DNA of 64,000 bases from Alphaproteobacteria bacterium (GTDB taxonomy: Bacteria; Pseudomonadota; Alphaproteobacteria; Bin95). The stretch lies in contig JAWLBX010000015.1 of NCBI GenBank assembly GCA_041687435.1, positions 5,860 to 69,859 of the forward strand. The letters run 5' to 3'. This document shows positions 4,160 through 41,705 of this stretch, in pieces. The position numbers and the translations under genes were made by a program. Every line of letters begins with the position of its first letter. The stretch's first letter is position 1. The notes below the pieces were generated by a model, which did not search any database, was not told where the DNA came from, and saw nothing but the letters and a program-made list of their open reading frames with translations.

Positions 4160-4177
4160 CAGCCCAGGGCTGGCCGC

Positions 4178-4555
4178 TCACACCTCCACCCGCTCCACAC
4201 GGGCAATCAACCCGTCGGTTATGGTCTTGAGCGGCCGCAGGTCGTCCTCGCAGGTCGCGAACACGTTGGACGGGCTGGCGAGCCGGATCTCGTCGCCGCG
4301 GCTGACGGGTGTCGGGCCGAAACCGATAGCCAATGCCTTCCCCGGCGGCCAGTAGGCGATATCGCCCGGCTGCATCACGTCGCGCGCATCGTCTTCCAGC
4401 GCCACCGCAACGGGCGCTGCGAAATACACCTCATCGCCCCAGGTGTTCACCGGCGCCTCGAACGGCGCAGCCTGCCAGACCGCGTCTGCAGTGGGCGTAT
4501 CTTTCAGGCTGAGTGTCAGCCGTATCCGGCCGATCGTGACGTGCAGGCGCCTCAT
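4178..4555 (-). CDS. cyclophilin-like fold protein (DUF3830 family), hypothetical
   Basis: About 125 aa starting at the internal ATG (MRRLHVTIGRIRLTL...). Weak recollection of the DUF3830 cyclophilin-like family. Confidence 0.45.
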   Translation of the reverse strand: MRRLHVTIGRIRLTLSLKDTPTADAVWQAAPFEAPVNTWGDEVYFAAPVAVALEDDARDVMQPGDIAYWPPGKALAIGFGPTPVSRGDEIRLASPSNVFATCEDDLRPLKTITDGLIARVERVEV

Positions 4556-4641
4556 GATCCCTCGCTTGCCGCTTGCCTTCGGGGCCAATGCCGCGGAAGG
4601 TAAACGCCCGCTGGTTTCCGTCAAGTCCGAGCGTCTTTTCC

Positions 4642-5877
4642 ATGCCGCGCACCCAAGAAGACAGTATCGAGCAGCCGTTCGGCTGGGTCATCGTCGCCGC
4701 CTCGCTGGCCATCATCACCATGGCGGTCGCCACAAACTATTTGATCGTGGTGGGCATCAAGCCGATGGCGGAAAACATGGACTGGCCGCGCTGGGTGACA
4801 TCGTCCGCCTATTCCGCCCTCACCATCGGTTCCGGCGTTGGTGGCATCATGATTGGGCTGTGGACGGACAAACGCGGAATCGGCGGGCCGCTGGCGCTGG
4901 CGGCACTGTCCATCGGCTTCGGCGCCATGCTGATCAGCCAGCTGGACGACCCGGTATTGATGCTGGCTGCGTGCTTTGTATTCCTGGGCGTTTTTGGCAA
5001 TGGTGCCGTGTTCTCGCCTCTGATCGCCAACGCAACCCGCTGGTTCGACCGGCGGCGGGGCATTGCCGTGGCCATTGTCATGGGCGGCCAGAACCTGGCC
5101 GGCGCGGTCTGGGCGCCGGTGTTCCGGCACGGGATCGAAACGGTGGGCTGGCGCGAGACTTGGTTCTGGTATGGCGTTCTGGCGATGGCGGCGATTTTCC
5201 CGCTGTCCTTCCTGTTGCGCCGCCGCCCGCCTGCCGTGCCATTCGGAACGCCCGCACCGGCAGAGCGGCACGCGATCGAAACCACGCTCAACCCGTTGCT
5301 GCGGCAGGGCTTGTTGTGTGCGGCCATCATCGGCTGTTGCGTCGCCATGGCCATGCCGCTGGTGCATGTCGTCGCCTATTGCAGCGATCTGGGGTATGGC
5401 CTGGACCAGGGTGCGCAAGTGCTCTCGCTGTTGCTGGCATGCGGATTCGTCAGCCGGCTGGGATTTGGCTGGCTGTCCGACCGGATCGGCGGGCTCAAAA
5501 CCATTTTCCTTGGCGCAGCCTTGCAGGCGGTGGCTCTGTCGCTATTCACGTTCATCGATTCGCTGACGGGCATTTATCTGGCAGCCGCGCTGTTCGGGCT
5601 GGTGTTCGGCGGCATCGTGCCGAGCTATGCGCTGGCGACCCGGCAACTGTTCCCCGCCAGCCAGGCCGCGGCCCGCATCGGCATTATTTTCATGGCCGGC
5701 TATATCGGCATGGGCGGCGGCGGTGCCCTCGGCGGTGTAATTTTCGACCTGACGCTGGATTACAAGATCGCCTTCACGGTCGGCGTGATCTTCAATGTGA
5801 TCAACCTGCTGTGCCTTTCGCTGATCCTGGCAAAACGCAAGCCCGAGCAGCCGCTGGCGACGCAACCGGCGGAATAG
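4642..5877 (+). CDS. MFS transporter
   Basis: Polytopic hydrophobic protein (~12 TM) with an MFS-like repeat organisation. Start chosen at the internal ATG (MPRTQEDSIEQPFGWVIVAAS...). Confidence 0.75.
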   Translation: MPRTQEDSIEQPFGWVIVAASLAIITMAVATNYLIVVGIKPMAENMDWPRWVTSSAYSALTIGSGVGGIMIGLWTDKRGIGGPLALAALSIGFGAMLISQLDDPVLMLAACFVFLGVFGNGAVFSPLIANATRWFDRRRGIAVAIVMGGQNLAGAVWAPVFRHGIETVGWRETWFWYGVLAMAAIFPLSFLLRRRPPAVPFGTPAPAERHAIETTLNPLLRQGLLCAAIIGCCVAMAMPLVHVVAYCSDLGYGLDQGAQVLSLLLACGFVSRLGFGWLSDRIGGLKTIFLGAALQAVALSLFTFIDSLTGIYLAAALFGLVFGGIVPSYALATRQLFPASQAAARIGIIFMAGYIGMGGGGALGGVIFDLTLDYKIAFTVGVIFNVINLLCLSLILAKRKPEQPLATQPAE

Positions 5878-5964
5878 GAATAAAGCCGCGGCAACTTGCA
5901 CTTCCGCCGCAGGCGCGGGATGATGGCTGCCTGTACCTGCCCTTCTGCCGGAATATGCCTTGTC

Positions 5965-6801
5965 ATGACCAAAACCCTCGCCGACCTCGTCTCCTATCGC
6001 TATGGCATCGAGACTGACCTGGGCGCTGACCGACCGGCGGAGGGCCTGCTGGCGCAGATCCTCGACCGGCGTTCGCACCGGCGCTGGAAGGAAGACCCGG
6101 TGCCGGACGATCTGCTCAACCTGCTGTTCGCCTGCGCTTTTTCTGCCAGCGCCAAATCCGACCTGCAGCAATCTGGCGTCGTGCGGGTACGCGACAAAGC
6201 CAAGCAGCAGGCGATCACCGACATGATTCCGGCGATGCCCTGGATCGCGTCGGCTCCGGTTTTCATGATCTGGATCGGCGACAACCGCCGCATCCGCCGC
6301 ATCTGCGAGATGCGGGGCAAGCCGTTCGGCAACGACCACCTGGACAGCTTCCTGAACGCCGCGACCGACTGCGCGCTGGCGATGCAGACCTTCATCCTGG
6401 CGGCGGAGAGCGAGGGGCTGGGCTGCTGCCCGATTTCGAACGTGCGCAACCATGCGGCCAGGATCGCGGACCTGCTGGAACTGCCCAAGTATACCTTCCC
6501 CTATGCCGGCCTTTGCGTCGGCTATCCGGCACGCGAGGGCTTTTCCTCCATGCGGCTGCCGATTTCTTGCTTCGTGCACGAGGACAAATACGACGACAGC
6601 GATTTGGAAGCCGACATCGACGGCTATGATCGCCGCCGTGCCGCACGGCATGCGCCGCCGAAGGAAAGCTGGCGGGACGTCGAGAAATGGGGCGAGCCAG
6701 ACTTCTACGGCTGGTCGGAGGACAAGGCCCGCCAGGTCGCCGTGACCGAGCGGGATAACCTGGGGCCGTTCGTCCGCGCGCAAGGGATCAAGACCGACTA
6801 G
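5965..6801 (+). CDS. nitroreductase family protein
   Basis: Nitroreductase-fold motifs ('RRSHRRWKEDPVPDDLL', 'GLGCCPIS') are present. Start at the internal ATG (MTKTLADLVSYRYGI). Confidence 0.7.
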   Translation: MTKTLADLVSYRYGIETDLGADRPAEGLLAQILDRRSHRRWKEDPVPDDLLNLLFACAFSASAKSDLQQSGVVRVRDKAKQQAITDMIPAMPWIASAPVFMIWIGDNRRIRRICEMRGKPFGNDHLDSFLNAATDCALAMQTFILAAESEGLGCCPISNVRNHAARIADLLELPKYTFPYAGLCVGYPAREGFSSMRLPISCFVHEDKYDDSDLEADIDGYDRRRAARHAPPKESWRDVEKWGEPDFYGWSEDKARQVAVTERDNLGPFVRAQGIKTD

Positions 6802-20699: not shown

Positions 20700-20776
20700 C
20701 GGGGTGTAGCGCAGTCTGGTAGCGCGCTAGTTTTGGGAACTAGAGGCCCCCGGTTCGAATCCGGGCTCCCCGACCA
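20700..20776 (+). tRNA. tRNA-Pro (anticodon TGG)
   Basis: 77-nt cloverleaf folded by hand. Acceptor stem cggggtg/ctccccg (one mismatch), D arm gcgc-agtctggta-gcgc, anticodon stem ctagt/actag with loop tttggga (anticodon TGG), T arm cccgg-ttcgaat-ccggg, 3' CCA encoded. Confidence 0.9.
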
Positions 20777-20841: not shown

Positions 20842-21285
20842 TCAACCAAAACCGCCGAACGCCCTTGGCCCATAGAACCAAGCGCACCGTCCGGTACAGA
20901 CATCACCGACATGCAGTACAGTGCCGAGCGTGTGGACTGCCGTAACCAAGATCACGGCCAGGATCGACCATTTCGAAACCTGCCATGCCCGCTGATAGCT
21001 TTTTGTCCGATGCTGGCGCAGGTCATTAAGTTGGTCTGCCGTTTCCTCACCACTCGACCATTTCAGCGGAATGACTCGCAATATCAAGTAGCATGACAGC
21101 AACAATGCAATGAAAACCATGTCCAGAATCAAATGCATCACATTGAGAACCAAACTCTCAATCCAGATTGCGAGCGTCGCAAGGAAGATTGCGTTAAAGG
21201 TCAACAGGGCCGCAGCCTTGCCATCCAAAATACTCAGCAAAGCGTATTGATTCTTAACATCACTTGAGTTGAGTTCGGATACCAT
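20842..21285 (-). CDS. hypothetical small membrane protein (3 predicted TM), atypical AT-rich codon usage
   Basis: Start at the internal ATG (MVSELNSSDVKNQYALLSILDGK...), with a GGATAGG RBS 5 nt upstream that lies inside the 3' end of the deaminase gene. About 48% GC against a ~65% background. The C-terminal ~25 aa read into GC-rich host-like sequence. Confidence 0.45.
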   Translation of the reverse strand: MVSELNSSDVKNQYALLSILDGKAAALLTFNAIFLATLAIWIESLVLNVMHLILDMVFIALLLSCYLILRVIPLKWSSGEETADQLNDLRQHRTKSYQRAWQVSKWSILAVILVTAVHTLGTVLHVGDVCTGRCAWFYGPRAFGGFG

Positions 21286-21289
21286 CTGC

Positions 21290-21745
21290 CTATCCCGATT
21301 TGCTGATATCCTCATTCCAGATATCGGCGTGTTCCTGGATAAAACGGCGCATCATGGCAACGCAGCGCTGATCTTCGCGAACGATCACCTCAACGCCATG
21401 CCGCCGAAGGAAATCCTCGTTGCCGCCGAAATTCTGCGTATCGGCGATCACAACGGTTCCGACCCCGAACTGCACGATGGTTCCAGAGCACATCATGCAA
21501 GGGGACAGGGTCGTGAACAGCACCAAGTCGCCGTAATCGTTTCGCCGCCCCGCGTTCTCGAAGCACGCCATCTCGCCGTGCAGGATTTGGCTGTCGCGCT
21601 GGACGCGCAAGTTGCGGCCTCGCGCGACGATTTCCGGACCGCGCATCAGCACCGCGCCGATGGGAATGCCACCTTCGGCCAGGCCTGCTGTGGCCTCCGC
21701 AAAGGCGGCATCGATCCCGGTGTTCAAGATCGCATCTGGCAGCAA
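21290..21745 (-). CDS. cytosine deaminase, yeast FCY1-type (CDA-fold nucleoside/cytosine deaminase)
   Basis: 151 aa with zinc-ligand motifs HGEMACFEN (H-x-E) and SPCMMCSG (PC-x-x-C). Remembered alignment to FCY1 along the whole length (…GGIPIGAVLM…, …TTLSPC.MC.G.I…, C-terminal …RC..MM..FI.E….W.EDI). Confidence 0.8.
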   Translation of the reverse strand: MLPDAILNTGIDAAFAEATAGLAEGGIPIGAVLMRGPEIVARGRNLRVQRDSQILHGEMACFENAGRRNDYGDLVLFTTLSPCMMCSGTIVQFGVGTVVIADTQNFGGNEDFLRRHGVEVIVREDQRCVAMMRRFIQEHADIWNEDISKSG

Positions 21746-21789: not shown

Positions 21790-22674
21790 CTAGGCCGTCA
21801 CCTGTTCCGCGGTCAAGCCGTCGCCGGCCAGCGTGGTGCGCCGCATGTCGCGCGGTTCTTCCGACGGGAACGGACGAGCCCGGTGCATGGTGCGCCGGTT
21901 GTCCCAGATGACCAAGTCGTTCAGCCGCCATTGGTGAGCATAGACGAACTCGCGCTGGGTCGCATGCTCCGTCAGGTCGCGCAGCAGCAGCAGCGCCTCC
22001 GGCGTCGGCCAGCCCAGAATCTCACCGGCATGCGAGGACAGGAACAGCGACTTGCGACCTGTCGCCGGATGGCTGCGCACCAGTGACTGCCGCACCGGCT
22101 TCAATCTCGCCATTTCCTCTGGCGTGAAATCGGTAAAGCCAATCTGGCGGCGGGAATACATCTGCGAATGCTCACAAATCAGATCATCAATCTGCGCCTT
22201 GGTCTCATCGGCGAGCGCGTCATAGGCGGCGCGCATGTCAGCAAACTGCGTCTCCCCACCCCTGGACGGAATCGAGCGGGCGTGCAGCAGCGAGTATTTC
22301 GCCGGCACCGGCTTGAAGGAACTGTCCGAATGCCAAAGCCGGTTGCCAATGCCGAACAGCCGCCGCCGGTCTTCGCGGGCGAACGGCCTGTTGTCCTTGT
22401 CCAGGTTGGAAACATCGGCAAAGGTTTTGGCGATCCGCAACTCGTTATCGCTGCGCAGATTGGTGGTCACCGGCGCTTCGATCGGACCGAGGCTGAGGGT
22501 GAAGGCCATCTGCGTCTCGTCGTCAAGCGGTACCTCGCGGAAGACGAGGACTGCATGTTCATTCATGGCGGCGTGAATCTCGTCCGCCTGCTCCGGCGTG
22601 ATCGGCTGCGTGATGTCGATGCCGCTGGCTTCAGCAGCGAAACACGGGCCGATCTGGCGAGTGGTCAAGGGCAT
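21790..22674 (-). CDS. TauD/TfdA-family Fe(II)/2-oxoglutarate-dependent dioxygenase
   Basis: 294 aa from the internal ATG (MPLTTRQIGPCFAAEASGIDI...). The 2-His-1-carboxylate context 'WHSDSSF' and the C-terminal 'DNRRTMHRA' motif are present. The ORF-finder's upstream 241 aa are a GC-frame artefact. Confidence 0.8.
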   Translation of the reverse strand: MPLTTRQIGPCFAAEASGIDITQPITPEQADEIHAAMNEHAVLVFREVPLDDETQMAFTLSLGPIEAPVTTNLRSDNELRIAKTFADVSNLDKDNRPFAREDRRRLFGIGNRLWHSDSSFKPVPAKYSLLHARSIPSRGGETQFADMRAAYDALADETKAQIDDLICEHSQMYSRRQIGFTDFTPEEMARLKPVRQSLVRSHPATGRKSLFLSSHAGEILGWPTPEALLLLRDLTEHATQREFVYAHQWRLNDLVIWDNRRTMHRARPFPSEEPRDMRRTTLAGDGLTAEQVTA

Positions 22675-22842
22675 GGGCGCATCCTTTCCGGCCATTTCAG
22701 GGCTCTTGCCGTCCATGCTAGGCGGTCTCGCCGCGCGCGGGTAGCCCATTCGCACGCGCTTTACCGAAACAGCAGCCTTCCGGCATGCACGCTGCGGGGA
22801 TAGAGTTCCGCTCATCTCACCAAAGCAACAGAGGACACGCAA

Positions 22843-23619
22843 ATGGGTCAGGTTTCGGGAAAAGTGGCGCTGGTCACGGGCGGCGCTTCGGGTATCGGCA
22901 AGGCCACGGCGCTGACGCTGGGGCGCGAGGGCGCTGCGGTGATGGTCACGGACCTGAACCAGGCCGGTGCGGAGGCGGTTGCCGCGGAAATCGTAGGCGC
23001 AGGTGGCAAGGCCCAGGCGATGCCGCAGGATACGACGGACGAGGACCGGTGGCAGGCTGTGATCGCCGCAACCGAGGCCGCATTCGGTAAGCTGGACGTG
23101 CTGGTGAACAACGCGGGCATCGCCATCGCCGGCCCGATCGAGACCTACAGCCTGGCCGACTGGCGGAAGCAGCAAGCGGTCAACGTCGATGGCGTGTTTC
23201 TGGGTGTGAAGCATGCCTTCCCGGCCATGCGGCGCGCCGGCGGCGGCTCCATCATCAACCTGTCCTCGATTGCCGGCCTGCGCGGCAATCGCTCCGGCCT
23301 CGGCGCCTACAGCGCCACCAAGGGCGCCGTGCGGCTGTTCACGAAGACGGCGGCGCTGGAGGGCGCCAAGGACAAAATCCGGGTGAACTCCGTCCATCCC
23401 GGCATCATCGAAACGCCGATCTGGGATGCGATCCTGCCGGGCGGCGAGGCCGGGCGCAATGCGGGCGACCTCAACGTACGGGCACGGGCGTCAGTGCCGA
23501 CCGGCGTGCTGGGACAGCCGCAGGACATCGCGAACGGTATCCTGTTCCTGGCCAGCGACCAGTCAAGCTATATGAGCGGCTCCGAACTGGTGATCGACGC
23601 CGGCGTGACCGCCGGCTAG
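22843..23619 (+). CDS. SDR family oxidoreductase (short-chain dehydrogenase/reductase)
   Basis: Cofactor-binding motif TGGASGIGKA, NNAG, and the catalytic S…Y-x3-K (YSATKGAV). Confidence 0.85.
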   Translation: MGQVSGKVALVTGGASGIGKATALTLGREGAAVMVTDLNQAGAEAVAAEIVGAGGKAQAMPQDTTDEDRWQAVIAATEAAFGKLDVLVNNAGIAIAGPIETYSLADWRKQQAVNVDGVFLGVKHAFPAMRRAGGGSIINLSSIAGLRGNRSGLGAYSATKGAVRLFTKTAALEGAKDKIRVNSVHPGIIETPIWDAILPGGEAGRNAGDLNVRARASVPTGVLGQPQDIANGILFLASDQSSYMSGSELVIDAGVTAG

Positions 23620-25714: not shown

Positions 25715-26915
25715 CTGCCAGCACTCCCTCGGCGATCAAGCGATTGATCGTATCGGCATCATAGCCGGCCCGCTCTGCCATGACCGTGCGGGTGTCGGCG
25801 CCGATGGCCCGGCCCGGCCAGTGGATCTCTCCAGGCGAGGCGGAAAGACGCGGCGCCGGGGCGGACATCGCCAGCAGGCCCAGGGCCGGATGGGGCACAC
25901 GGGCCAGCGTTTCGCGCGCTGCGTAGTGCGGGTCCGCGAACACGTCTGCCATGGTGAAAATGCGGGTGGCCGGCACGTCGTTTTCGATCAGCGCCGCTTC
26001 CAACGGCGCCAAATCTTGCGTCCCGACCCAATCCTGAATCATGCGTTCCAGCAATTCCTGGTTCTGGCCCCGGGCGCGGGCGGTGGCGAACCGCTCGTCA
26101 GTCGTCCAGTCTTCGCGCCCCATCACCTGGCAGAGACGGCGGAACACCGGGTTGGCGGAGGCCGCGATCTGAATATCCCGCCCGTCGCGCGTGCGGAACA
26201 GGCCATTGGGGGAAACCCCCGGCAGGCGCGAGCCGGCACGGTTGGCGACATGGCCCAGCTGGTCATAGGCCGGGATGTGCGGCTCCATGAAGCTGAAGGC
26301 ACTCTCCATCAGGTTGGCATCCACCACCTGCCCTTCCCCCGTGCGGTCACGGTGGATCAGGGCCATAGCGATGCCGAACGCGGCATAGAGGCCGGTGATA
26401 TAATCCGTCAGAGACACGGCCACGCGCGCCGGCGGACGGTCCGGGTCGCCGGTGATGTGGCGCAGGCCGCTCACCGCCTCGCCAATGATGCCGAAGCCCG
26501 GGCGGGGGGAGTACGGGCCGGACTGGCCGAAGCCGGAAATGCGCGCCATGATCAGGTCGGGCTTCACCGCTTTCAGGTCCTCATAGCCGAGGCCCCATTT
26601 CTCCAGGCCGCCGGGACGGAAATTCTCGATCACCACGTCACTGTTGCGCGCCAAATCCCGGATCGCCTGCTGGCCTGCCGGCATGCGCATGTCGATGGCG
26701 ACGAGTTGCTTGTTCCGCAGGATGCTGGCGGCATAGAGCGATACATCCTCGCCATTCTCCGCCTGCTTGTGCTTGCCCATGGAGCGGACCGGATCGCCCG
26801 CCGGTGGCTCAACCTTGACCACTTCGGCGCCGAAGTCGGCCAGCAGCCGGCCGCAGAATGGCCCGGCAATGGTCGATCCAAGTTCGAGCACCCGGGCGTG
26901 GACGAGCGGTCCCAT
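25704..26915 (-). CDS. CoA transferase, family III (CaiB/BaiF)
   Basis: 403 aa from the internal ATG (MGPLVHARVLELGSTIAGPFCG...). Family III signatures around 'RVLELGS.IAGP' and 'GFGQSGPY'. Confidence 0.85.
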   Translation of the reverse strand: MGPLVHARVLELGSTIAGPFCGRLLADFGAEVVKVEPPAGDPVRSMGKHKQAENGEDVSLYAASILRNKQLVAIDMRMPAGQQAIRDLARNSDVVIENFRPGGLEKWGLGYEDLKAVKPDLIMARISGFGQSGPYSPRPGFGIIGEAVSGLRHITGDPDRPPARVAVSLTDYITGLYAAFGIAMALIHRDRTGEGQVVDANLMESAFSFMEPHIPAYDQLGHVANRAGSRLPGVSPNGLFRTRDGRDIQIAASANPVFRRLCQVMGREDWTTDERFATARARGQNQELLERMIQDWVGTQDLAPLEAALIENDVPATRIFTMADVFADPHYAARETLARVPHPALGLLAMSAPAPRLSASPGEIHWPGRAIGADTRTVMAERAGYDADTINRLIAEGVLADAA

Positions 26916-27906
26916 GGCATGGCGATCCTTGCGGAAAGGAAAACGGATGCCCGCACTATAGCAAGCTTCCAACCGGGGGAAACCGGTTCAACCCGCCCAG
27001 CGCTCCGCATCGTTTTTCTCACCCGCAACCGGATTGAGCGGCACGCCTCGCAGTCATCCATCTCAATAAAACACTATGAAATTTTCAGTAATTATAATCA
27101 TTTTCAATATATTCGCAGAGGCTACACTGCCTATCGGCCGAACACCTCAGAATGTATGCATAAGGGAATTTTCTCACCATACATTAATCCCTCACGATCC
27201 GGCCCTTCCGTCACGTCAACTTCCCAGCATAACTGGCATCGGGATAGGCTGGCGACCCAGCGGAGCATAATTTGGATATGTGCAGGAGAGAAAATACGCA
27301 ATATCGAACGCGGAAAAATATGACATCTATTATTTTCCCACCTTCCATTAAATTATCGAAACCAGTGCCTAAATATTGATTGCACGCATAAATTGCTGCA
27401 CCGGTATTGAATTATTCAATCACGCTTAATAAGACTGAAAACCTGAAAAATCTGGATAATATCATGGAATGTTTTATCACAAACATATCGACATAATGAA
27501 TTACTACGACATAGTATCAGGATTTTTTCAGCGCCATTTCCGCATTATCACCTCCATATACTTAACAAGTAAATCCGCCTTTCCCAAAACAATATGCAAT
27601 ATTCAGCGATACATTTATACATATGTATGAATTTGCACCGTAAATTCTCCATGATCTTTTGGATTATAACCCGGATTGATATCAGTCGCGACTTTACATT
27701 CTTTGTGATTTGTCCACATTTATTTCTGCATACGATGGACAATAGGACACCCTGAGGGTTACCCGAAGATGGTTCTTGGTTTGTATGGTAACAAGCTGCT
27801 TCTATTACAGACCGTTTGGAACGACGCCCGCCAGGGTTGTAATGCAGTCCATCTATGGATGTACGATAAATATTCCAAGTTCTCAACCGAGTGAAAGGAC
27901 AAATCT

Positions 27907-28689
27907 ATGCTTGAGCGCACCCCACAGGCTTTTATCAACGCCTGCTTCTCTTTGATGTGGAACTCCGGTTATTCAGCTACTATCGATACTGATTTGCGTG
28001 GCTGGGTGGATTTTCTAACCAACGCGTATCCGGATTCGCCCGTCAATGCAGCCTTCAACCCCGAATTCCATCGCCTGGAACCCGACAATTCGTTCTGGCT
28101 ATCCATTCGCCGGCGCAGCGATGGCAAGGTGATCGCTTGTATTTGCGACCGGTTGATCGAGTCAGACGATTTCCTGGAAGACCAGCGGCTCATGAAAATC
28201 TGGTATGGCGATCCGGCGACAAGCGGGGCGGCCCCCATGCAGATCGCGCAGCCGCGCTCCGCCTATCCTGATGTGCGCGGTAAGATCGGCCATCACGGCG
28301 GTCTCTGGGTCGACCGTAGCGAGCGACATAATGGGTTGGCATGGCTGCTGTGCCGCATCATCCGCGCCATGTCTCTGCAGCGCTGGCCGGATGTCGACTG
28401 GCACTGCGGCACCTCACTCGAGGGCGTGGCGGTACGGGATCTGCCAACAAATACCTACGGCTATACCCGTGTCGACCTCTTGCTCGACGGTTGGTTCCAA
28501 CCCAGTCAGCAGCACCATAAAGTGTTCATGACCTCGATCAGCGCCAATGAAATGAGCCTGCAAATTGCAGAGGATCTGTCACTGATCGAAATGAACACCG
28601 ACAAGCAAATGCGTGACGTTGTTTTTGCCGCTAGAGAGCGGAAGAGCAACACGCCGGTACTCCCGGCTGTGCAAGCCCTTGCCGGTTAA
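27907..28689 (+). CDS. hypothetical protein
   Basis: 260-aa ORF immediately downstream of an ~880-bp AT-rich non-coding stretch. Lower GC than its surroundings and no recognisable domain. Confidence 0.4.
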   Translation: MLERTPQAFINACFSLMWNSGYSATIDTDLRGWVDFLTNAYPDSPVNAAFNPEFHRLEPDNSFWLSIRRRSDGKVIACICDRLIESDDFLEDQRLMKIWYGDPATSGAAPMQIAQPRSAYPDVRGKIGHHGGLWVDRSERHNGLAWLLCRIIRAMSLQRWPDVDWHCGTSLEGVAVRDLPTNTYGYTRVDLLLDGWFQPSQQHHKVFMTSISANEMSLQIAEDLSLIEMNTDKQMRDVVFAARERKSNTPVLPAVQALAG

Positions 28690-29082
28690 TTGGGCACTCA
28701 CTCCTTGGAATAAAGGAAACTTATTCGCCTTCGCTATGACGAGATCACGCTCCAAGGCCCGCTGAAGGGCTTTGGAGCTGATGTCGGAAACGCGTATGCC
28801 GGAATAGCCACCCATGCCCCGCAGCGCGAACACGTCATAGCTAAAATTGCCGGGGTTTTCATCGTGCACATCGATGACATGGAACCAGCCCAGAACGCCC
28901 AGACGGGTCAATTCCATCAGCCCAACATCATCGATATCCGGCAAGATCCCGTGACGCCGGGGCAAGGAAAACCAGAAACGGACAAGCCGCGCCAACGGCG
29001 CGTCCTTGCCTTCATCCAGTTCGGTCAATGCGCACACACGCCGTTCTACGACATCGCCGCTTCCGGCTTCGCGTTCGATCAT
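28579..29082 (-). CDS. hypothetical protein (possible PAS-like sensory fold)
   Basis: 167-aa ORF whose 3' end overlaps the preceding convergent ORF by ~110 nt, so one of the two calls may be wrong. Weak resemblance to PAS-like folds only. Confidence 0.35.
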   Translation of the reverse strand: MIEREAGSGDVVERRVCALTELDEGKDAPLARLVRFWFSLPRRHGILPDIDDVGLMELTRLGVLGWFHVIDVHDENPGNFSYDVFALRGMGGYSGIRVSDISSKALQRALERDLVIAKANKFPLFQGVSAQLTGKGLHSREYRRVALPLSSGKNNVTHLLVGVHFDQ

Positions 29083-29109
29083 TTCGCACCTCGCGGCAAC
29101 AGCACGAAT

Positions 29110-29703
29110 TTATTGAAGATGGTCATTGCTGTACAACCAGTCGCCAGAGACCGATTCTCCATGCACAAGGACATATTCGAACGCCCCTGCATCGCGCAGA
29201 GGGAAAATCAGTTGGTCTATGCTATTACTCGCGTTCAGGTCCCGTCGGGAAAACCGTCTAGCAGCAGCGCGACGATAACGGACCGCATCCAGATATTCCA
29301 GGGCGAAAAGTTGCAATAACCGCGCATCATTTACGTGCCGTATGATCGCCGAGCCGAACTGCTGCCCTGCTTCCATCACAACCGCATCACCCGCCCAAAT
29401 CACCGGCCAATCGTCCGGGTCGCGCCCCACCACGCCGACGATATACGCCTGCTCGTCCAGCATGTTCAGCGATTGCATCACATCAGATACCATCCCGGTG
29501 AACTGGTAATATCCTGCAATTCCACATAAATCGACCCAGCGCAGCAGGGCTCGCTGCAACTCCTCCGTCGCCGAGAGAATAGGAATGTCGCTCGCTTCCA
29601 CGATCGCCGCAAGCTCCTTCTCAGGACCGATTCCGCCTTGAATGATCTTTCCCGAAGTCGACACGTTAACGTCCTTGTGTTTATAGACAAAGGATTTGAT
29701 CAT
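29110..29703 (-). CDS. hypothetical protein
   Basis: 197-aa ORF with no confident domain. Loosely similar in pattern to the preceding ORF. Confidence 0.4.
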   Translation of the reverse strand: MIKSFVYKHKDVNVSTSGKIIQGGIGPEKELAAIVEASDIPILSATEELQRALLRWVDLCGIAGYYQFTGMVSDVMQSLNMLDEQAYIVGVVGRDPDDWPVIWAGDAVVMEAGQQFGSAIIRHVNDARLLQLFALEYLDAVRYRRAAARRFSRRDLNASNSIDQLIFPLRDAGAFEYVLVHGESVSGDWLYSNDHLQ

Positions 29704-29754: not shown

Positions 29755-30561
29755 TCAACGATCACAGCTTCCCTTATGGCCATATTTCATGGCCGAAACC
29801 GATAAAATCATGCCGCTTTCCAACCAGAGCCGCAACAATGCCGCAGCGTGCGATCCGGCAGTATCCGCGCCGACACAGCCAGCCAGCGCCTCGCAAATCG
29901 CAGCGAACGGCTCGCCAGCCGCCAGTTGAGCCAGCGCCGCGTCCTCCGCTTCATCCAGCACCCGATAGCGGACGGTGTACCCGTCGCGCCAGACTAAAGT
30001 ATGATGCAGCGGCACCGGCTCCAGCGGGCCGGGCCCATCGCCTGCCGCCAACGCCTGATAGATTGCGGCGGCCGGTGTCGCAGCCGGCACCCGGCGCACG
30101 GCCAGATGAAGGGCGAAGCGCAGTTCCGGCCATTCCTGCGGGTGAAACGCCGCCATCGCTTCCACGCCGCACGCTGGCGCATCCGGCGCATCGAATGCGG
30201 CAGCAATGGCCCAATCCAGCGCGGCGACATCCGCCACCGCCGGTGTTCCGCTATGGTGGCTGGCCAGAAACCCCGCAAAGCCGTCGCCATACCATCGCGC
30301 ATTCCGCACTGCCGATGGCGCAGACGCGATATAGGCACGCGCAGCAGCATCGAAACCGTCATCGCCCAGCAAGGCCCAGGTCTTGTCGAAATTGGCCTGC
30401 AATACCTCCACCAGGCGGGCCGCATAGGCGTGGCGGTAGATGCCGAACAGGGTGGCCGCGCTTTCCCGCGGGCCGGCGTTGATGCCATCCGGTACGGTGT
30501 CGTTCCCGGTATGCAAAATTGCTGCCTGAAATTCGGCCTGAAGCGTAGCCAGATCGGTCAC
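29755..30561 (-). CDS. DUF2063 protein (MNIO partner subunit, BufC/MbnC/TglI-like) of RiPP operon 2
   Basis: 268 aa with a DUF2063-like N-terminal region ('[10 protein letters not shown]…[18 protein letters not shown]'). Its start overlaps the stop of the upstream DUF692 gene by 4 nt. Confidence 0.75.
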
Positions 30562-31412
30562 GACTTCCTGGCCTCTGCTTCCACCCGCGCAGCGATGGCA
30601 CGGGCATGGTCCAGTTCCGCGAGCAAATCGGCAAGCGGCGGAATGTTGTCGTCCCGTTCGATCATGGTCGAGACCCGGCCGAAGTGGTGGCAGGCAGCTT
30701 CATAAAGCGCCCAGACATCGTCGATCACCGGCGCATCGTGGGTGTCGATAATATGCGTGCCGTTGTTGCTGTGACCGGCGAGATGGAACTGGACCACCCG
30801 GTCACGCGGGACGCCTTCGATAAAGGTCTGGGCATCGAAATCGTGATTGAAGCCGCTGACATAGATATTGTTAACGTCGAACAGCAACCAACAATCGGCT
30901 GCCTCCGCCACCGCGCTCACGAACTCCCACTCGCTCATCATCGAATGGGCATAGGTGACGTAAGAGGACACGTTCTCAATGGCGATCCGCCGCCCCAGAT
31001 AATCCTGCACCTGGCGGATGCGCCCGGCCACATGGGCGACGGCTTCCTCCGTGTACGGCAGCGGCAGCAGGTCGTGCAGATTCAGGCCATCGACACCGGT
31101 CCAGCAGAGATGGTCGCTAATCCACTGGGGCTGGACCCGGTCGGCCAGCGCCTTCAGGTCGCGCAGATAATCCGGGTCCAGCCGGTCTGTGCCGCCGACC
31201 GACAGCGATACGCCATGCATGACAATGGGATAGTCGGCCCGCACCCGGTCGAGAATCGCCAACGGCTGACCGCCGGGGATCATGTAATTCTCGGAGATGA
31301 TCTCGAACCAATCGACCGGCGGCTTTTGCTCCAACACGTCAGCATAGTGCTGGGTACGCAGCCCCAGGCCAAACCCCAGATAGGGCGGGCGCTCCGCTAT
31401 GGAATCGGTCAT
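30558..31412 (-). CDS. DUF692 multinuclear non-heme iron oxidase (MNIO; MbnB/TglH/BufB-like) of RiPP operon 2
   Basis: 284 aa from the internal ATG ([19 protein letters not shown]...). DUF692 TIM-barrel motifs: 'WFEIISENY', 'HGVSLSVGG', 'WISDHLCW', 'LPLPYTEE', 'IENVSSY', 'FDVNNIYVS', 'FHLAGH'. Confidence 0.85.
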
Positions 31413-31514
31413 CGGCGGCGCTTCCTCATCCGGCAGGTCCAGAATCACCAACGGCCGAGCACACGTAGGCGCCCGGCCGAAGCGGCACAAGTGCCGGAGA
31501 TGACAGGGGGCGGA

Positions 31515-31775
31515 TCAGCCGACCTTGCCACCCATCTTCGTGCACTCTTCCGCGGTCTTGGTGTTGATCCAGCCCTGACCCTTGCAGGCATTCTGGCCCT
31601 TGCAGGAGCTGGTGGCGGTCTGACAGGCGCTGTGGCCCTTGCAGGAGTTGGCCCCCATGCACTTCACGCCATCGGCGGCGAACACGGCGGTCGGCGCCAC
31701 CATCGCGCCGGTGGAAAACATTGCGGCAGCAGCAGCGGCGAGCACGACGCCAGAGGTCTTTTTCATCACGGACAT
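31515..31775 (-). CDS. RiPP precursor peptide, 6-Cys bufferin-2-like, with Sec signal peptide
   Basis: 86 aa: MSVMKKTSGVVLAAAAAAMFSTGAMVAPTAVFA | ADGVKCMGANSCKGHSACQTATSSCKGQNACKGQGWINTKTAEECTKMGGKVG. AGGAG RBS 7 nt upstream of the ATG. It lies directly upstream of a DUF692/DUF2063 pair. Confidence 0.7.
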   Translation of the reverse strand: MSVMKKTSGVVLAAAAAAMFSTGAMVAPTAVFAADGVKCMGANSCKGHSACQTATSSCKGQNACKGQGWINTKTAEECTKMGGKVG

Positions 31776-31946
31776 GCAATATCTCCTAGAGGTTGGTCGC
31801 GCCGGACAATCCGGCGCGGTTTCGAACACTCCCGCACAAAGCCCTTGGCCGGGCCAATGTGCTGGTCGCATTCTGCGCTTTTGGCCCGGCAGCGCCACCA
31901 AACAGACGCACACAGACATTCACTGTTGTGTGAGACTGCATCGGTG

Positions 31947-32456
31947 TCACCGCCCTGCCAGGGCCCGGCCGAGCCAATGCTCGACCGAGATGATGCCGGG
32001 CCCCCGCGCCATGATCAACAGCAACGCGGATGCCCAGAGCAGATGCACATCCCATGCACCCGGCAACACAAATATCTGGATAACAAGCGTCATCCCGAAC
32101 AGGCCGAGCGCGGCCAGGCGGGTGAACACGCCGATGAACAGAAACAGCGGCAGCCAGCTTTCCATATAGGTCGCCATCCATCCTGCAAATCCGGGCGACA
32201 GCAGCGGCACGCCATATTCCTCGAACAGATATGGCAGGCTGGGGCTGAGTTCCAGGCTGAACGTCAGGGCGCCCAACAGATTCCAATCCACGGCTTTGGT
32301 CTGGGCCGAAACCAGGAATACCATGCCTATACCGACCCGCGCCGCAAACAGGATCAGGCTCATCGGGATCATTTCCAGGACGGCAATCCCGGCATTCACG
32401 GCTTCCATGGCGCTGTTGCTGGCGGGCCGCGGGTTGTAGCCTACCCTGTCATTCAT
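31947..32456 (-). CDS. DoxX family membrane protein (BufD-like) of RiPP operon 1
   Basis: 169-aa 4-TM DoxX-like protein. Its start overlaps the stop of the upstream DUF2063 gene (ATGA). Confidence 0.7.
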   Translation of the reverse strand: MNDRVGYNPRPASNSAMEAVNAGIAVLEMIPMSLILFAARVGIGMVFLVSAQTKAVDWNLLGALTFSLELSPSLPYLFEEYGVPLLSPGFAGWMATYMESWLPLFLFIGVFTRLAALGLFGMTLVIQIFVLPGAWDVHLLWASALLLIMARGPGIISVEHWLGRALAGR

Positions 32457-33274
32457 CGCGTGGTTTCCTTATTTTTCAATTCCTGTGGAGCCTCCAGCGC
32501 AGCAAAAGTGCCCCGCTGCAAGTTGGTCGACAAAGCATCTGCAAGGTCAAAAGCCGGATCGGCGGCGGTGGCTGCAGCGGCCGCCCCGGCCATGTCCTGG
32601 CCCGCAGCAAAGGCAGCGAGCCAATGCCATTCCCCGGCCGGCACATGCCACATGCGAACATCGTATCCCTGCCGCAGCAGCAGGATCGCAGCGCCGCCCG
32701 CAGCCACCAGGTCGATCCGCTCGAGCGCACCGCTCTCCGGCGCCCGCGTGGCGTGCCAGAGCGCATCCACCGGCCAGTCGCTCGCAACGAGGCCGGCATC
32801 GGCGCGGGGGCGCAGCACCAGATCGGCCAGCGCATCGGCCGGCACTGCCCCCAGTGCGCCAGCCGTCAGAGCCGACTCATCGGCAGCATGAAAACTTCGG
32901 TGCATGGCCCATTCCAGCCGCGCAAGGTCGGGCAGATAAGGCAGACTGGCGGCGGACGGAAACGCGGCGAGGAAGTCGGCAAAACCGTCGCCATAGGCAT
33001 AGAGCACCGGATCGCATGGCGGCCCTTCCGCGATGAAGCCGTGCGCGGCAGCGCGGAAAAATTGGATGCCCACCATGGCCTCAACGGCGCTGTAAATCCC
33101 GGCGAGCGCGTCGGTCAAGGTGATCCGGATGTGATTGTGATGCACTTGCAGACGGCTGGCCGGGGCGATGCCATCTCCGAGGATATGGCCGACCGCCCCG
33201 CCCCCATCCGCAGGCGGCACCGGTGCGAACAGTTGCGCCCGCATGGCGTCCTGAAGCTCAAGCAGCGTCGGCAT
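32453..33274 (-). CDS. DUF2063 protein (MNIO partner subunit) of RiPP operon 1
   Basis: 273 aa with a DUF2063-like N-terminus ('LQDAMRAQLF…'). It overlaps the upstream DUF692 gene by 17 nt. Confidence 0.75.
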   Translation of the reverse strand: MPTLLELQDAMRAQLFAPVPPADGGGAVGHILGDGIAPASRLQVHHNHIRITLTDALAGIYSAVEAMVGIQFFRAAAHGFIAEGPPCDPVLYAYGDGFADFLAAFPSAASLPYLPDLARLEWAMHRSFHAADESALTAGALGAVPADALADLVLRPRADAGLVASDWPVDALWHATRAPESGALERIDLVAAGGAAILLLRQGYDVRMWHVPAGEWHWLAAFAAGQDMAGAAAAATAADPAFDLADALSTNLQRGTFAALEAPQELKNKETTR

Positions 33275-34145
33275 GGCGCAAAGCCTGGTCTAGATGGCAC
33301 TGGGCCGCGGCAGCCTCTGCCAGCAGCACCTCCAGCGGTGGCATGGCGGTATCCCACTCGATCAGGGTTGGCATCGGCCCCAACAGGGCGAGCGCACGCT
33401 CATATAAGGACCAAACGGCCGGCGCCACGCGGCTGCCGTGGTCGTCGATGCGGACGATCCGCTCTCCCACCCGATTCTCGGCATGGCCGGCCAGATGGAT
33501 TTCCGCCACCGGTGCGCTACTCATGGTTTCCAGATAGACCGCTGCATCCCAGCCATGATTCTCGCAACTGACGTAAACATTGTTGACGTCCAGCAGAATG
33601 CCGCAGCCGGTCTGCTCCGCCACAGCCCGCATGAAATCGGGTTCGGCGATGGTCGAATGTTTGAATTGCAGATAGGTGGACGCGTTTTCTACCAAAATCC
33701 GCCGCCCAAAGGCCTCCTGCGCCTGGTCGATATTGCGGCAGACAACCGCCACGCTCTCCTCTGTATAGGGCAGCGGCAGCAGGTCATTGAAATAGGTGCC
33801 GCGGTGCATGCTCCAGGAGAGATGCTCCGACACCAGCCCCGGCTCGATGCGCCGGGCGAACGTCACCAGGCGGGCGAGGTGGGCAGGGTCCAGCCCGTCG
33901 GCCGAGCCGAGCGACAGGCCAACGCCATGCATGGACACCGGGTAATGTGCCCGCGCAGCCTCCAGGTAGGCGAGCGGCGCACCACCGCCCAGATAGTTTT
34001 CCGGATGGATTTCCAGCCAGCCGACGGCAGGCAAGGTTTGCGTCACCGCCTCAAAATGGGCGGCGCGAAGGCCGATCCCCGCCGCGACCGGAATGGTGGC
34101 CGCGTCGGGGAGTGGGCCAGACGGATATTGAGGCATGGCCTGCAT
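33258..34145 (-). CDS. DUF692 multinuclear non-heme iron oxidase (MNIO) of RiPP operon 1
   Basis: The same DUF692 motifs as paralog 2 are present ('WLEIHPENY', 'HGVGLSLGS', 'VSEHLSW', 'LPLPYTEE', 'VENASTY', 'LDVNNVYVS', 'IHLAGH'). Start at an internal ATG (MQAMPQYPSG… or the MPQYPSG ATG 9 nt downstream). Confidence 0.85.
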   Translation of the reverse strand: MQAMPQYPSGPLPDAATIPVAAGIGLRAAHFEAVTQTLPAVGWLEIHPENYLGGGAPLAYLEAARAHYPVSMHGVGLSLGSADGLDPAHLARLVTFARRIEPGLVSEHLSWSMHRGTYFNDLLPLPYTEESVAVVCRNIDQAQEAFGRRILVENASTYLQFKHSTIAEPDFMRAVAEQTGCGILLDVNNVYVSCENHGWDAAVYLETMSSAPVAEIHLAGHAENRVGERIVRIDDHGSRVAPAVWSLYERALALLGPMPTLIEWDTAMPPLEVLLAEAAAAQCHLDQALRHADAA

Positions 34146-34179
34146 TGGACCGAACCTTAGACTTCCGCCCCGCGAACCA

Positions 34180-34434
34180 TCAGCCGGCGGTCTTCGAACC
34201 GCCGACCAACCGGTCGCACAGGCCGGCCGGAACCAAAACCCAGGCGTCTTTCTGGCCATCCACCTTGGATGTACCGGCACAGGAACTGTTTGCCGTGTTG
34301 CAGTCGTTGGCGCCAGCCTTCACCACACCATAGCATTTTTCCATCTTTTGATCGGCAGCCGCGGCCGGGCTGGCGGATACCGTCGCGCCGACGGCAGCGG
34401 CTACGGCGGTGGCGAGCAGGGCAGTCTTGTTCAT
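34180..34434 (-). CDS. RiPP precursor peptide, DUF2282-type (bufferin-1-like), with Sec signal peptide
   Basis: 84 aa: MNKTALLATAVAAAVGATVSASPAAA | ADQKMEKCYGVVKAGANDCNTANSSCAGTSKVDGQKDAWVLVPAGLCDRLVGGSKTAG. Four Cys, in the arrangement typical of DUF2282. It is the first gene of the minus-strand operon. Confidence 0.75.
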   Translation of the reverse strand: MNKTALLATAVAAAVGATVSASPAAAADQKMEKCYGVVKAGANDCNTANSSCAGTSKVDGQKDAWVLVPAGLCDRLVGGSKTAG

Positions 34435-35100
34435 CTGTCAGATCCTTTCGGTTTCGCCTTCCGGCGACAGGCTTGTCCATCGCCTGCTGTCCATACAAGT
34501 TGCATTTCCGACCGATACGCCAGTCACTACCCCGTGATCTCACAGCCATGTTATGTAAGGTTTCCAAACAGTTCACGGCATATCACAGGGCAGCGCAACT
34601 GGACTCACAATTGTGTTATTCGGCAGAATGCCATCATCGCCATGGAATCTGAACGCACCCGATCCTGCCCGGTTGCCAGATCGGACCGCGCGCCGCGCGC
34701 GGCCCTGACCGAATGCTATTACATGACACCATCGAAATTAAGAGCCGGCACAATTGTGGCAACAACTTGGCATGGCGCAAATGGCGAGCACCTGCGTAGC
34801 GCGCGCCCTTATAAATTCGCAGCATCCGGCACTACGATATTCACATGACAGTACGGCGGTATCCAGCCGTCATCGCCGGCTGCAGCGACGTCAATGTCGG
34901 CAAACTCCCTGGCCAGTGCGCCTTTTTGGTAAGAGCGAAACACTTAACGGGCTTTTCATTTGCAGTAATTTGGAGTAGACAAGAGTTATTCAATTCGCGT
35001 GCCTACCGCCGAGGGGTGGGAATCAGGCGGAGATCGAATTGTTTGGTGGGCCAGACCCGCCTGACGCGGAACCCATAGTGCTAGGAGGATGGGCGACCCC

Positions 35101-40894: not shown

Positions 40895-41165
40895 TCTATG
40901 TTCTATCCTCTTTAGGATATCATTTTAGTAATTTTATCAAAATGTTAACTTAAAGTCTGCGTATTTTCATAAACTCAGGCAAAGATTTAGGGTTTACCCT
41001 TAACCGCTTTCGCTCTTGTTCCATTCTTATCCCATCATCTATTAAATAAAGCAAGCTCTCTCCATCTGCCACAGTGACGATTTCAGAAAATGCAGTTTCA
41101 GACTGTAATAATTCACCCGATATTTTATTTAATACATCACAGATATTATTAATTGATTCATCGAC

Positions 41166-41636
41166 TTATTTTCTGTTTATACCTGTCAAATTTTTTGCAT
41201 ATCCATTAATTGCAAAATTTAAATCAGTATGTGAAATTTTTTTATTGCGCCACTCTCTAGCAAACTCAGCATTCGTCAATGTATGACCGACCAATAATTT
41301 TACATCTTTTTCTAAATCATTCCCTTTCATTATGGCTGGCAATCTTCTAATGCTAAGATTATCATGCCCTGCTGTTTTTTCTGAATCTGTTAATTTTGCT
41401 ATGTGCAAAATAATATATTCCCACATTATATCTTGTGTCATTTTAAAAAAATTACCAGTTTCCATGTTTAATAAATCCACTCTTTCTTTGCTGTGGCCGA
41501 AAAGTGTTTTGTATTCTTTCCATCTATAACAAAGAATTATCGTTTCTTGCCGAATAGCTGTATAGAGAGAACCTAGTTCCTCACCCATAACTTCAATATT
41601 ACGAAGGCGAGCTTCTTCGGCGGTAATGTGTCCCAT
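41166..41636 (-). CDS. hypothetical protein, AT-rich foreign gene; possible HEPN-like (R-x5-H) domain
   Basis: 156-aa ORF at ~35% GC inside a ~750-bp AT-rich islet. A C-terminal 'EWRNKKISHTDLNF' segment fits the HEPN Rx4-6H consensus. No other recognisable domain. Confidence 0.4.
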   Translation of the reverse strand: MGHITAEEARLRNIEVMGEELGSLYTAIRQETIILCYRWKEYKTLFGHSKERVDLLNMETGNFFKMTQDIMWEYIILHIAKLTDSEKTAGHDNLSIRRLPAIMKGNDLEKDVKLLVGHTLTNAEFAREWRNKKISHTDLNFAINGYAKNLTGINRK

Positions 41637-41705
41637 GCTTGCTCCAGAAATTCGTCAAATAGGCCCAAGGCGACTTTTGTCGAAGCACCATATCAAGCGG
41701 ATGCT

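Follow-up and report, generated by a model that had tools for sequence, protein, structure and literature searches.

A stretch of 64,000 nucleotides from an alphaproteobacterial genome assembly (GCA_041687435.1, contig JAWLBX010000015.1, positions 5,860 to 69,859; the whole stretch is termed the window here) contains an AT-rich tract (26973-27906) followed by three open reading frames, ORF1 to ORF3, and by two operons for bufferins, copper-related peptides that belong to the ribosomally synthesized and post-translationally modified peptides (RiPPs). This arrangement raises the question of whether the three reading frames are genes at all, whether they belong with the bufferin (buf) operons, and what their products might do. 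Comparative analysis indicates with high confidence that ORF1-3 are genuine genes encoding a GNAT acyltransferase, a PAS_5 protein and a further PAS-fold protein, that they are independent of the buf operons, and that the overlap between ORF1 and ORF2 is a conserved property.

The three genes and their overlap

Related loci were recovered by looking up exact protein matches and by a single scan of the GTDB genomes, and their gene arrangements were derived by tblastn of the window proteins; the nearest relative, locus L024, was found via a marine-metagenome lineage. ORF1 (27907-28689, forward strand, 260 amino acids) and ORF2 (28579-29082, reverse strand, 167 amino acids) are convergent, and ORF3, called at 29110-29703 on the reverse strand, adjoins ORF2 on its upstream side. 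As the first-pass annotation had reported, the three reading frames have lower GC contents (56.8% for ORF1, 56.2% for ORF2 and 53.9% for ORF3) and no direct match in Pfam or NCBIfam. In a set of 5.8 billion proteins, clustered at 90% identity, ORF1 has 24 close homologues and ORF2 has 21, all of them full length, and ORF3 has 29, with one protein 100% identical to it in NCBI. Mismatches to L024 at first, second and third codon positions number 12, 3 and 90 in ORF1 and 18, 6 and 50 in ORF2, and a neighboring housekeeping CoA-transferase gene shows a similar pattern (14, 5 and 116). Since the divergence of ORF1 and ORF2 is dominated by third positions and all three proteins belong to conserved families of full-length members, ORF1-3 are real genes.

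The 3' ends of ORF1 and ORF2 overlap by 111 nt (28579-28689) in every related locus, in keeping with the convergent overlap of about 110 nt noted earlier, and the two frames are exactly antisense, codon position 2 lying opposite codon position 2. Relative to L024, third-position divergence falls from 45/131 (34%) outside the overlap to 5/37 (13.5%) inside it for ORF2 (p=0.015) and from 84/224 (37.5%) to 6/37 (16%) for ORF1 (p=0.014), as expected if the wobble sites of each gene are held by the first codon positions of the other. Across families the tail of ORF2 is more conserved than its body (73% vs 66%), and the tail and body of ORF1 are equally conserved (62%). Judged by these substitution patterns the overlap is a true dual-coding segment in which both frames appear to be constrained. 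With both genes conserved and both frames constrained, neither call is doubtful, and the earlier suspicion that at least one of them was spurious is thus wrong.

Regarding ORF1, weak matches to the acetyltransferase family PF00583 were detected in 10 of 22 close homologues, and the best sequence match in the Protein Data Bank (PDB) is the aminoglycoside 6'-acetyltransferase AAC(6'), aligned at motif A (E 0.077). An exhaustive profile search recovered 713 cluster representatives (at 50% identity), nearly all of 230-270 amino acids. Among 72 sampled distant members, 33 matched PF00583 (best E 3.3e-6) and 19 matched PF13508 (best E 9.7e-5); no NCBIfam model for the family was found among these members, nor did the wide profile find a PDB relative usable by sequence. 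Motif A (Q/R-x-x-G-x-G/A), which follows strand beta-4 and binds the pyrophosphate of acyl-CoA, is represented by R140-x-x-G143-x-A145, with R140 and G143 invariant and A145 nearly so in 22 sequences, and R140 is conserved at 90% or more across the 72 distant members. Because distant family members match PF00583 and PF13508 and motif A is conserved, ORF1 is assigned to the GNAT superfamily, and it is predicted to be an acyl-CoA-dependent acyltransferase of an uncharacterised family of about 250 amino acids. Its architecture comprises an N-terminal extension of about 60 amino acids and a C-terminal tail encoded antisense to the partner gene.

The assignment of ORF2 was reached by way of structure prediction and of more distant relatives. 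The PAS_5 family (PF07310) has no match in ORF2 or in 19 of its close homologues, even at E <= 10, and PDB searches by sequence gave nothing usable for the profiles of either ORF2 or ORF3. The AlphaFold2 model of ORF2 has a predicted local distance difference test score (pLDDT) of 86.4 and a predicted template modelling score (pTM) of 0.83, and its top 50 Foldseek matches in the PDB are dominated by sensor domains of the PAS, LOV or PAS-like type, with probabilities up to 0.99. Alignment of the ORF2 family by hhalign to the convergent partner of a distant ORF1 relative (locus L019) gave 99% probability over the full length (E 2.5e-18, 163 columns); that partner scores 25.6 bits against PF07310, for which the cutoff is 22, and among 20 representatives of the wider family of partners 7 match PAS_5 (best E 1.9e-6). 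ORF2 is a divergent stand-alone PAS_5 protein and the conserved convergent partner of ORF1. Neither ORF2 nor ORF3 has a DNA-binding helix-turn-helix (HTH) or other output domain, and ORF2 was not found on plasmids.

The first 13 codons of ORF3 as called are not conserved. Because the homologues start at the equivalent of V14 and L024 carries a 1-nt indel within the preceding codons, the start is probably the GTG at 29664, which would give a protein of 184 amino acids (29110-29664, reverse strand). The AlphaFold2 model (pLDDT 84.6) matched PAS or LOV domains in nearly all top Foldseek hits in the PDB (probability up to 0.99), while neither PAS_5 nor ORF2 could be linked to ORF3 by sequence; the possibility that ORF2 and ORF3 are paralogues was rejected, BLASTP and hhalign both being negative. 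Outside the clade of the window no ORF3 homologue was found, and a second small protein at L019, considered as a candidate, was not accepted (E 0.0034, probability 9.5%). According to the structural models, ORF3 is thus a second stand-alone protein of predicted PAS fold, and a clade-specific addition to the ORF1/ORF2 core. The models of ORF2 and ORF3 both resemble solved PAS domains, whose fold is an antiparallel sheet of five strands flanked by helices. ORF3 and ORF2 share one reading frame in the window, where 27 nt (29083-29109) lie between them. The stop codon of ORF3 and the start codon of ORF2 overlap by 4 nt in three related loci (L004, L008 and L010), which suggests translational coupling of the two genes, loosened in this genome and in L024.

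The GNAT/PAS_5 pair and its genomic settings

ORF1 was detected in only 5 of 185,579 GTDB species genomes, all of them metagenome-assembled genomes (MAGs) of Alphaproteobacteria or Rhodospirillales. Three arrangements were found among the close relatives. The window shares its gene order with three related lineages (L024 to L026, L008/L009 and L004/L010): a CoA-transferase gene and an AT-rich spacer precede ORF1 on the forward strand; ORF2, ORF3, a buf2-type operon and a buf1-type operon with DoxX follow on the reverse strand, and the order is completed by a spacer, a forward OmpA gene and a reverse phosphoenolpyruvate (PEP) mutase gene. The flanks are common to these three lineages, with CoA-transferase, short-chain dehydrogenase/reductase (SDR) and M20 genes on one side and OmpA and PEP mutase genes on the other. 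In a second arrangement (L014, L012/L018, L007/L017 and L043/L044) ORF1, ORF2 and ORF3 are followed directly by a spacer and the OmpA and PEP mutase genes, with no buf genes; L014 lies on a 5.16-Mb MAG contig of chromosome level. In the third (L001 to L003), ORF1 and a truncated ORF2 are situated between transposases of the IS21, IS66 and IS4 families. The trio is inherited vertically in one clade of uncultured marine and soil Alphaproteobacteria (Rhodospirillales-like MAGs). In the same genome pairs the flanking proteins are 84-93% identical and ORF1-3 only 56-69%, indicating that the trio evolves faster.

Since the trio is conserved with or without buf genes, it forms a unit of its own, independent of the buf operons. 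The latter are found between ORF3 and OmpA in one sub-clade only, where they were gained or from whose relatives they were lost, and are therefore best regarded as neighbors, not partners. In the window they form two tandem operons of differing type on the reverse strand (29755-31919 and 31947-34434). The operon adjoining ORF3 contains a BufA2-type precursor gene (NCBIfam NF050166, 85.6 bits) with bufB and bufC; because the match spans only residues 58-133 of a 134-amino-acid reading frame, the true start of the precursor is internal to that frame. The distal operon encodes a precursor, BufA1 according to the Pfam matches of its relatives, together with bufB, bufC and DoxX.

The convergent pair is also found far outside this clade. 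Relatives of ORF1 with 25-35% identity (L019/L020, L021 and L022) are in each case paired with a convergent ORF2-like gene that overlaps them, by 122, 132 and 84 nt, respectively. A metagenome scan with the motif [IV]GH[HEA]GGLW[VI] yielded 73 loci (forming 26 clusters at 70% identity and 11 at 50%), none with a bufB, bufC, DoxX or LuxR gene nearby. A convergent ORF2-like gene was present in 63 of the 68 loci with enough downstream sequence, and in 59 of these 63 pairs the 3' ends overlap by 45-228 nt (median 96), always by a multiple of 3 and thus codon-aligned; in two further loci (L033 and L035) the partner is co-directional. In five loci (L047, L052, L055, L059 and L081) the GNAT gene is closely preceded by another PAS_5-like paralogue, in addition to its convergent partner.

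Some members of the family reside on mobile elements. One pair with a 132-nt overlap (L021/L031, IMGVR_UViG_3300027607_000117) belongs to a predicted prophage, where it is flanked by a DUF7873 gene and a cI/Cro-like repressor module; accessory or defence genes expressed in the lysogen are usually found at this position. The clade of the window itself was not found in viral contigs. Rhizobial conjugative plasmids carry an ORF1-family member (hhalign 99.7%, E 2.9e-25) without a PAS_5 partner. On two of them, pSS05631a of Sinorhizobium sp. CCBAU 05631 (L027, positions 3965-6687) and pRCCGE525b of Rhizobium jaguaris (L028), this GNAT gene, annotated as 'hypothetical', is located 1.1-2.2 kb upstream of a true LuxR-type receptor gene on the same strand (Autoind_bind 9.5e-33, and GerE). 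An ATP-grasp gene was observed upstream of the ORF1-family gene in L028 and L029.

Thus, the ORF1/ORF2 pair with overlapping 3' ends is an ancient and widespread core, to which ORF3 was added in one clade. Its parts come from known superfamilies; the module itself, a near-obligate GNAT/PAS_5 pairing with a conserved antisense coding overlap, is covered by no curated family and absent from the literature searched.

The AT-rich spacer and the origin of the block

GC content was assessed against the whole window, which has a mean of 62.6% (300-bp windows: mean 0.626, standard deviation (SD) 0.060) and not the genome background of about 65% assumed before. As claimed earlier, the tract at 26973-27906 is AT-rich and without a credible open reading frame: its GC content is 41.5%, its lowest 300-bp window reaches 33.7%, about 4.8 SD under the mean, and a 400-bp sliding plot confirms a sharp trough at 27.0-27.9 kb with a minimum of 36%. 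Only one other stretch of the window (40.9-41.7 kb) falls below 40%. In ORF1-3, GC at third codon positions (GC3) is 0.61-0.67, compared with 0.75-0.85 in neighboring genes, and the intergenic region at 34435-35088 has 55% GC. The buf operons (29755-34434), at 63.7%, resemble the flanks (64.7-65.2%), so that there is no uniform foreign block of 8 kb; low GC is confined to ORF1-3, to the spacer before them and to the intergenic segment 34435-35088. In every relative examined the trio and its spacer are likewise below the flanks in GC.

The spacer is the divergent intergenic region between the CoA-transferase operon (reverse strand) and ORF1, and comprises two parts. The distal part (26973-27594; about 40% GC over 27004-27603) is non-coding and fast-evolving: over some 600 bp it is only 36-54% identical to L024 and cannot be aligned, although the flanking genes are 84-94% identical at the DNA level and the spacer of L024 is alike in length (about 1 kb) and AT-richness. 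In the proximal part (27595-27906), 308 bp adjoining ORF1 were matched to L024 by BLAST at 76% identity. Three conserved blocks were recognized there: a 12-bp palindrome, ATACATATGTAT, near 27618-27629; a 33-mer containing TTTACA, TTTACATTCTTTGTGATTTGTCCACATTTATTT, near 27694-27726; and CCATCTATGGATGTACGATAAAT, near 27851-27873, which includes a -10-like TACGAT about 40 nt before the ATG. A Shine-Dalgarno sequence, AAAGGA, lies about 8 nt upstream of the ORF1 start codon. Parts of these blocks recur in L008 and L004, and a TACGAT/TACCAT-like element and the Shine-Dalgarno sequence are present in all loci compared. Region 27595-27906 is therefore likely to be the promoter/operator of ORF1, on the forward strand, as far as sequence conservation can indicate. 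A promoter and terminator scan gave counts equal to those in shuffled sequence.

Other explanations of the spacer were tried and rejected. A hidden gene or pseudogene is not indicated, as the small ORFs are broken by stops or frameshifts in L024 and lack codon periodicity, PADLOC gave no match, and the spacers of relatives contain no conserved ORFs. A structured or small RNA was dismissed, given that Rfam had no match at the gathering score or at E <= 1 and that the fold of the proximal region is unremarkable (z = -1.8); the spacer also contains no tRNA. Within 26900-27950, only short chance-level matches to repeats, transposon ends or attachment sites were seen, and the spacer has no similarity to the remainder of the window. 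A tract of 0.4-1 kb with 20-45% GC is situated 5' of ORF1 in every clade member examined, whichever gene lies beyond. Across the wider family, the 300 bp upstream of the GNAT gene fall below the locus mean by only about 6 GC points, as intergenic DNA commonly does, and an AT-rich upstream tract common to the whole family was therefore rejected; in its extreme form the tract is confined to the clade. A silencing role on AT-rich DNA has been proposed for the alphaproteobacterial protein MucR (PMC7710501), and it is plausible that a nucleoid protein of this kind binds the tract. The distal spacer could be a compositionally constrained platform of this kind or neutrally decaying DNA, and the data leave both.

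The second of these readings, in which the distal 600 bp or so are a functionless remnant (such as a dead gene or old insertion) that drifts to AT because mutation in GC-rich bacteria is typically AT-biased, is possible but rather doubtful. It would account for the failure to align this part between genomes with otherwise similar neighboring genes, for the lack of a conserved ORF, repeat or RNA motif, and for the absence of such a tract from the wider family; on the other hand, the tract has been kept in every clade member examined, even beside different upstream neighbors, and bacterial deletion bias should have removed inert DNA over that span. Far less probable is the reading of the first-pass annotation, that the segment at 27.0-35.1 kb was acquired horizontally as a single block, is silenced as xenogeneic DNA, and contains in the three ORFs accessories for bufferin export, immunity or regulation. 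The lower GC of spacer and trio accords with it, as do the proposed role of MucR, the presence in the window of another AT-rich island, which carries an AbiU2 defence gene and points to AT-rich acquired DNA in the genome, and the position of ORF3-ORF2, which follow bufC on its own strand after 51-90 nt, a gap without a predicted terminator, so that read-through from the buf operon would be possible. However, the buf operons are of background GC, and three related lineages share the same block, the same flanks and the AT-rich spacer at similar composition, so recent horizontal acquisition of the unit fails by the test that the first-pass annotation had itself set for it. Nor do the accessories find support: the trio occurs without buf genes in at least four loci, its co-occurrence with bufferin genes is limited to one sub-clade and is not seen in the 73 wider-family loci, and bufferin clusters have been described as bufABC(D) only (PMC11626156). 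No integrase, flanking direct repeat or tRNA was found at the block edges, the only tRNA of the window, at 20700-20776, being some 6 kb distant. As regards the 'unit' and the 'accessory' role, this reading is largely refuted. An older mobile origin of the module itself is plausible, because low GC persists and family copies lie between insertion sequence (IS) elements and in a prophage. Overall, the account of the locus as one block is for the most part wrong and the AT-rich tract as such is modest, and what emerges is a coherent, widespread and uncharacterised gene pair.

Several further features of the window were noted. The second island (40895-41705) is more AT-rich than the spacer, with 34% GC and a minimum of 30%, and includes a low-GC gene of 156 amino acids (41166-41636, reverse strand) for an abortive-infection-type defence protein of the HEPN_AbiU2 family (PF18734, E 2.6e-21) without a PADLOC match; this gene was probably acquired laterally. 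The tRNA at 20700-20776 (forward strand) is a tRNA-Pro with anticodon TGG and is followed by a stretch of lower GC (about 46-52%), where a reading frame of 157 amino acids (20842-21315, reverse strand) has a weak PycTM-like PADLOC match (E 8.6e-4). As L024 to L026 have a gene of 147 amino acids at the same place, this stretch is not a strain-specific island. The reading frame of 535 amino acids at 21790-23397 (reverse strand) is over-extended, its TauD-like match covering residues 244-526 only and the gene of relatives encoding 294 amino acids; it is overlapped by 22843-23619 (forward strand, GC3 0.85), which corresponds to an SDR gene of 258 amino acids in relatives.

Proposed function and comparison with known systems

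As ORF2 and ORF3 have no output domain and the PAS_5 gene is almost always linked to a GNAT gene, the PAS proteins would most plausibly work through ORF1, by binding it. In the proposed mechanism the PAS subunits would sense a ligand or other cue and thereby control the acyl-CoA-dependent transfer that ORF1 would carry out on a small molecule or a protein; by analogy, the arrangement may be a split version of the fusions of sensor domains to GNAT domains that occur among protein acetyltransferases. Convergent transcription over the shared 3' end could couple expression of ORF1 and ORF2 antagonistically, by polymerase collision or by duplexes of the 3' RNAs, and the AT-rich upstream tract may keep the ORF1 promoter tightly controlled, possibly via a nucleoid-associated protein. 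This mechanism of a PAS-gated acyltransferase with coupled expression is put forward tentatively, as falling somewhat short of probable, while the explanation as a whole, in which the firmer anatomy of the locus is combined with it, is slightly favored. Several observations weigh against it: the match of ORF1 itself to PF00583 (E 0.032, 15 bits) is below the cutoff of 20.7; the Foldseek matches of ORF2 and ORF3 reach only E 0.005-0.1 and template modelling (TM) scores of 0.3-0.5; the statistics of dual constraint come from one genome pair (p about 0.015); the antisense coupling is suggested by gene geometry; and the extreme AT-rich tract, being clade-specific, may not be needed for the module.

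Alternatively, the genes could constitute a conflict module of the toxin-antitoxin or abortive-infection kind, with ORF1 as a GNAT toxin that might acetylate charged tRNA, for example, and the PAS_5 protein(s) neutralizing it until a trigger occurs. Toxins of the GNAT type that come with a closely linked partner protein are well established (TacT, AtaT, KacT), and the patchy and mobile family, with copies between IS21, IS66 and IS4 transposases and a copy beside the repressor module of an IMG/VR prophage, would fit such a role, as would the persistently low GC and the lower identity of the trio proteins (56-69%) relative to the flanks (84-93%). Nevertheless ORF1-3 match no PADLOC defence model, ORF1 is with 260 amino acids about 90 longer than known GNAT toxins (about 160-180), its partner is a PAS protein and not of the ribbon-helix-helix (RHH) or DUF1778 type, the genes are convergent instead of co-transcribed, and the module is syntenic and vertically inherited in its clade; rhizobial plasmids moreover carry the GNAT gene without PAS_5, where an unneutralized toxin should not be tolerated. 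This alternative is therefore considered unlikely. A pair of signal synthase and receptor, in which ORF1 makes an N-acylated small molecule bound by the PAS_5 and PAS proteins in functional analogy to LuxI/LuxR, is equally hard to favor and appears quite improbable. It draws on the placement of ORF1-family members near a true LuxR receptor on two rhizobial plasmids, roughly in the position of luxI, on the ability of PAS-like folds to bind small ligands, and on the GNAT-like fold of LuxI and the known convergent luxI/luxR pairs with overlapping 3' ends; but no family member among ORF1-3 and the 72 distant members matches Autoind_synth (PF00765), Autoind_bind or GerE, ORF2 and ORF3 lack a DNA-binding or other output domain, and the connection with LuxR comes down to a single orthologous locus on plasmids, over a distance of more than 1 kb, and recurs neither in L029 and L030 nor in the 73 metagenome loci.

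A broader proposal is that the GNAT/PAS_5 pair is an undescribed and widespread switch or signaling module of Alphaproteobacteria, in which the GNAT protein makes or responds to an acylated signal bound by PAS_5 and the shared 3' end serves as an antisense switch. This is a long shot; if true, it would provide the first function for PF07310 and a new type of synthase/receptor beside LuxI/LuxR. As to the wider relevance of the locus, bufferin clusters are freed of three supposed accessory genes, which is relevant for delimiting such RiPP clusters. An uncharacterised GNAT family of 713 representatives emerges as almost always partnered with a PAS_5 family for which no function has been assigned, and a coding antisense overlap has been kept across subfamilies sharing about 25-35% identity. 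To our knowledge, conserved and dual-constrained convergent overlaps of about 100 nt are uncommon in bacteria, and the pair offers a natural system for the expression and evolution of overlapping convergent genes and a first handle on PAS_5 proteins.

Among the known systems for comparison are the bufferin (buf/gig) clusters, which consist of bufA (DUF2282 or BUF_6/12Cys), bufB (MNIO/DUF692), bufC (DUF2063) and bufD (DoxX). Such clusters adjoin the trio in the window and in three related lineages, with ORF3-ORF2 on the same strand just downstream of bufC, but the trio differs in occurring without buf genes, in its lower GC and in its absence from the described components (PMC11626156); likewise a survey of the MNIO landscape mentions no acetyltransferase, GNAT or PAS domain (PMC12452194).

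With the PAS_5 family (PF07310, formerly DUF1457), which comprises uncharacterised stand-alone PAS proteins of Alphaproteobacteria, ORF2 shares a single-domain architecture of about 165-180 amino acids and the motifs YW...LR, H(I/V)xDV and Y.RL.LP(L/F), although, unlike genuine members, it is itself under the Pfam threshold. In the literature searched PF07310 or DUF1457 is not mentioned, so that the family gives no functional lead, nor was a description of the obligate pairing with GNAT found. Members of the GNAT superfamily (PF00583, PF13508) likewise have motif A, and distant members of the ORF1 family match both profiles; ORF1 differs in having no curated family, in its N-terminal extension of about 60 amino acids and in its antisense-coded tail.

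Convergent luxI/luxR pairs, such as esaI/esaR with its overlapping 3' ends, are alike in the tail-to-tail arrangement of an acyltransferase of GNAT fold and a ligand-binding partner with overlapping ends; ORF1-3 differ from these in that the signatures of Autoind_synth and Autoind_bind are missing and neither ORF2 nor ORF3 contains an HTH, and the GNAT/PAS_5 overlap is longer (median 96 nt) and under dual-coding constraint. The fusions of sensor domains to GNAT domains embody the same idea of a sensor controlling a GNAT enzyme, whereas here the presumed sensor would be a separate protein, encoded convergently with the acyltransferase.

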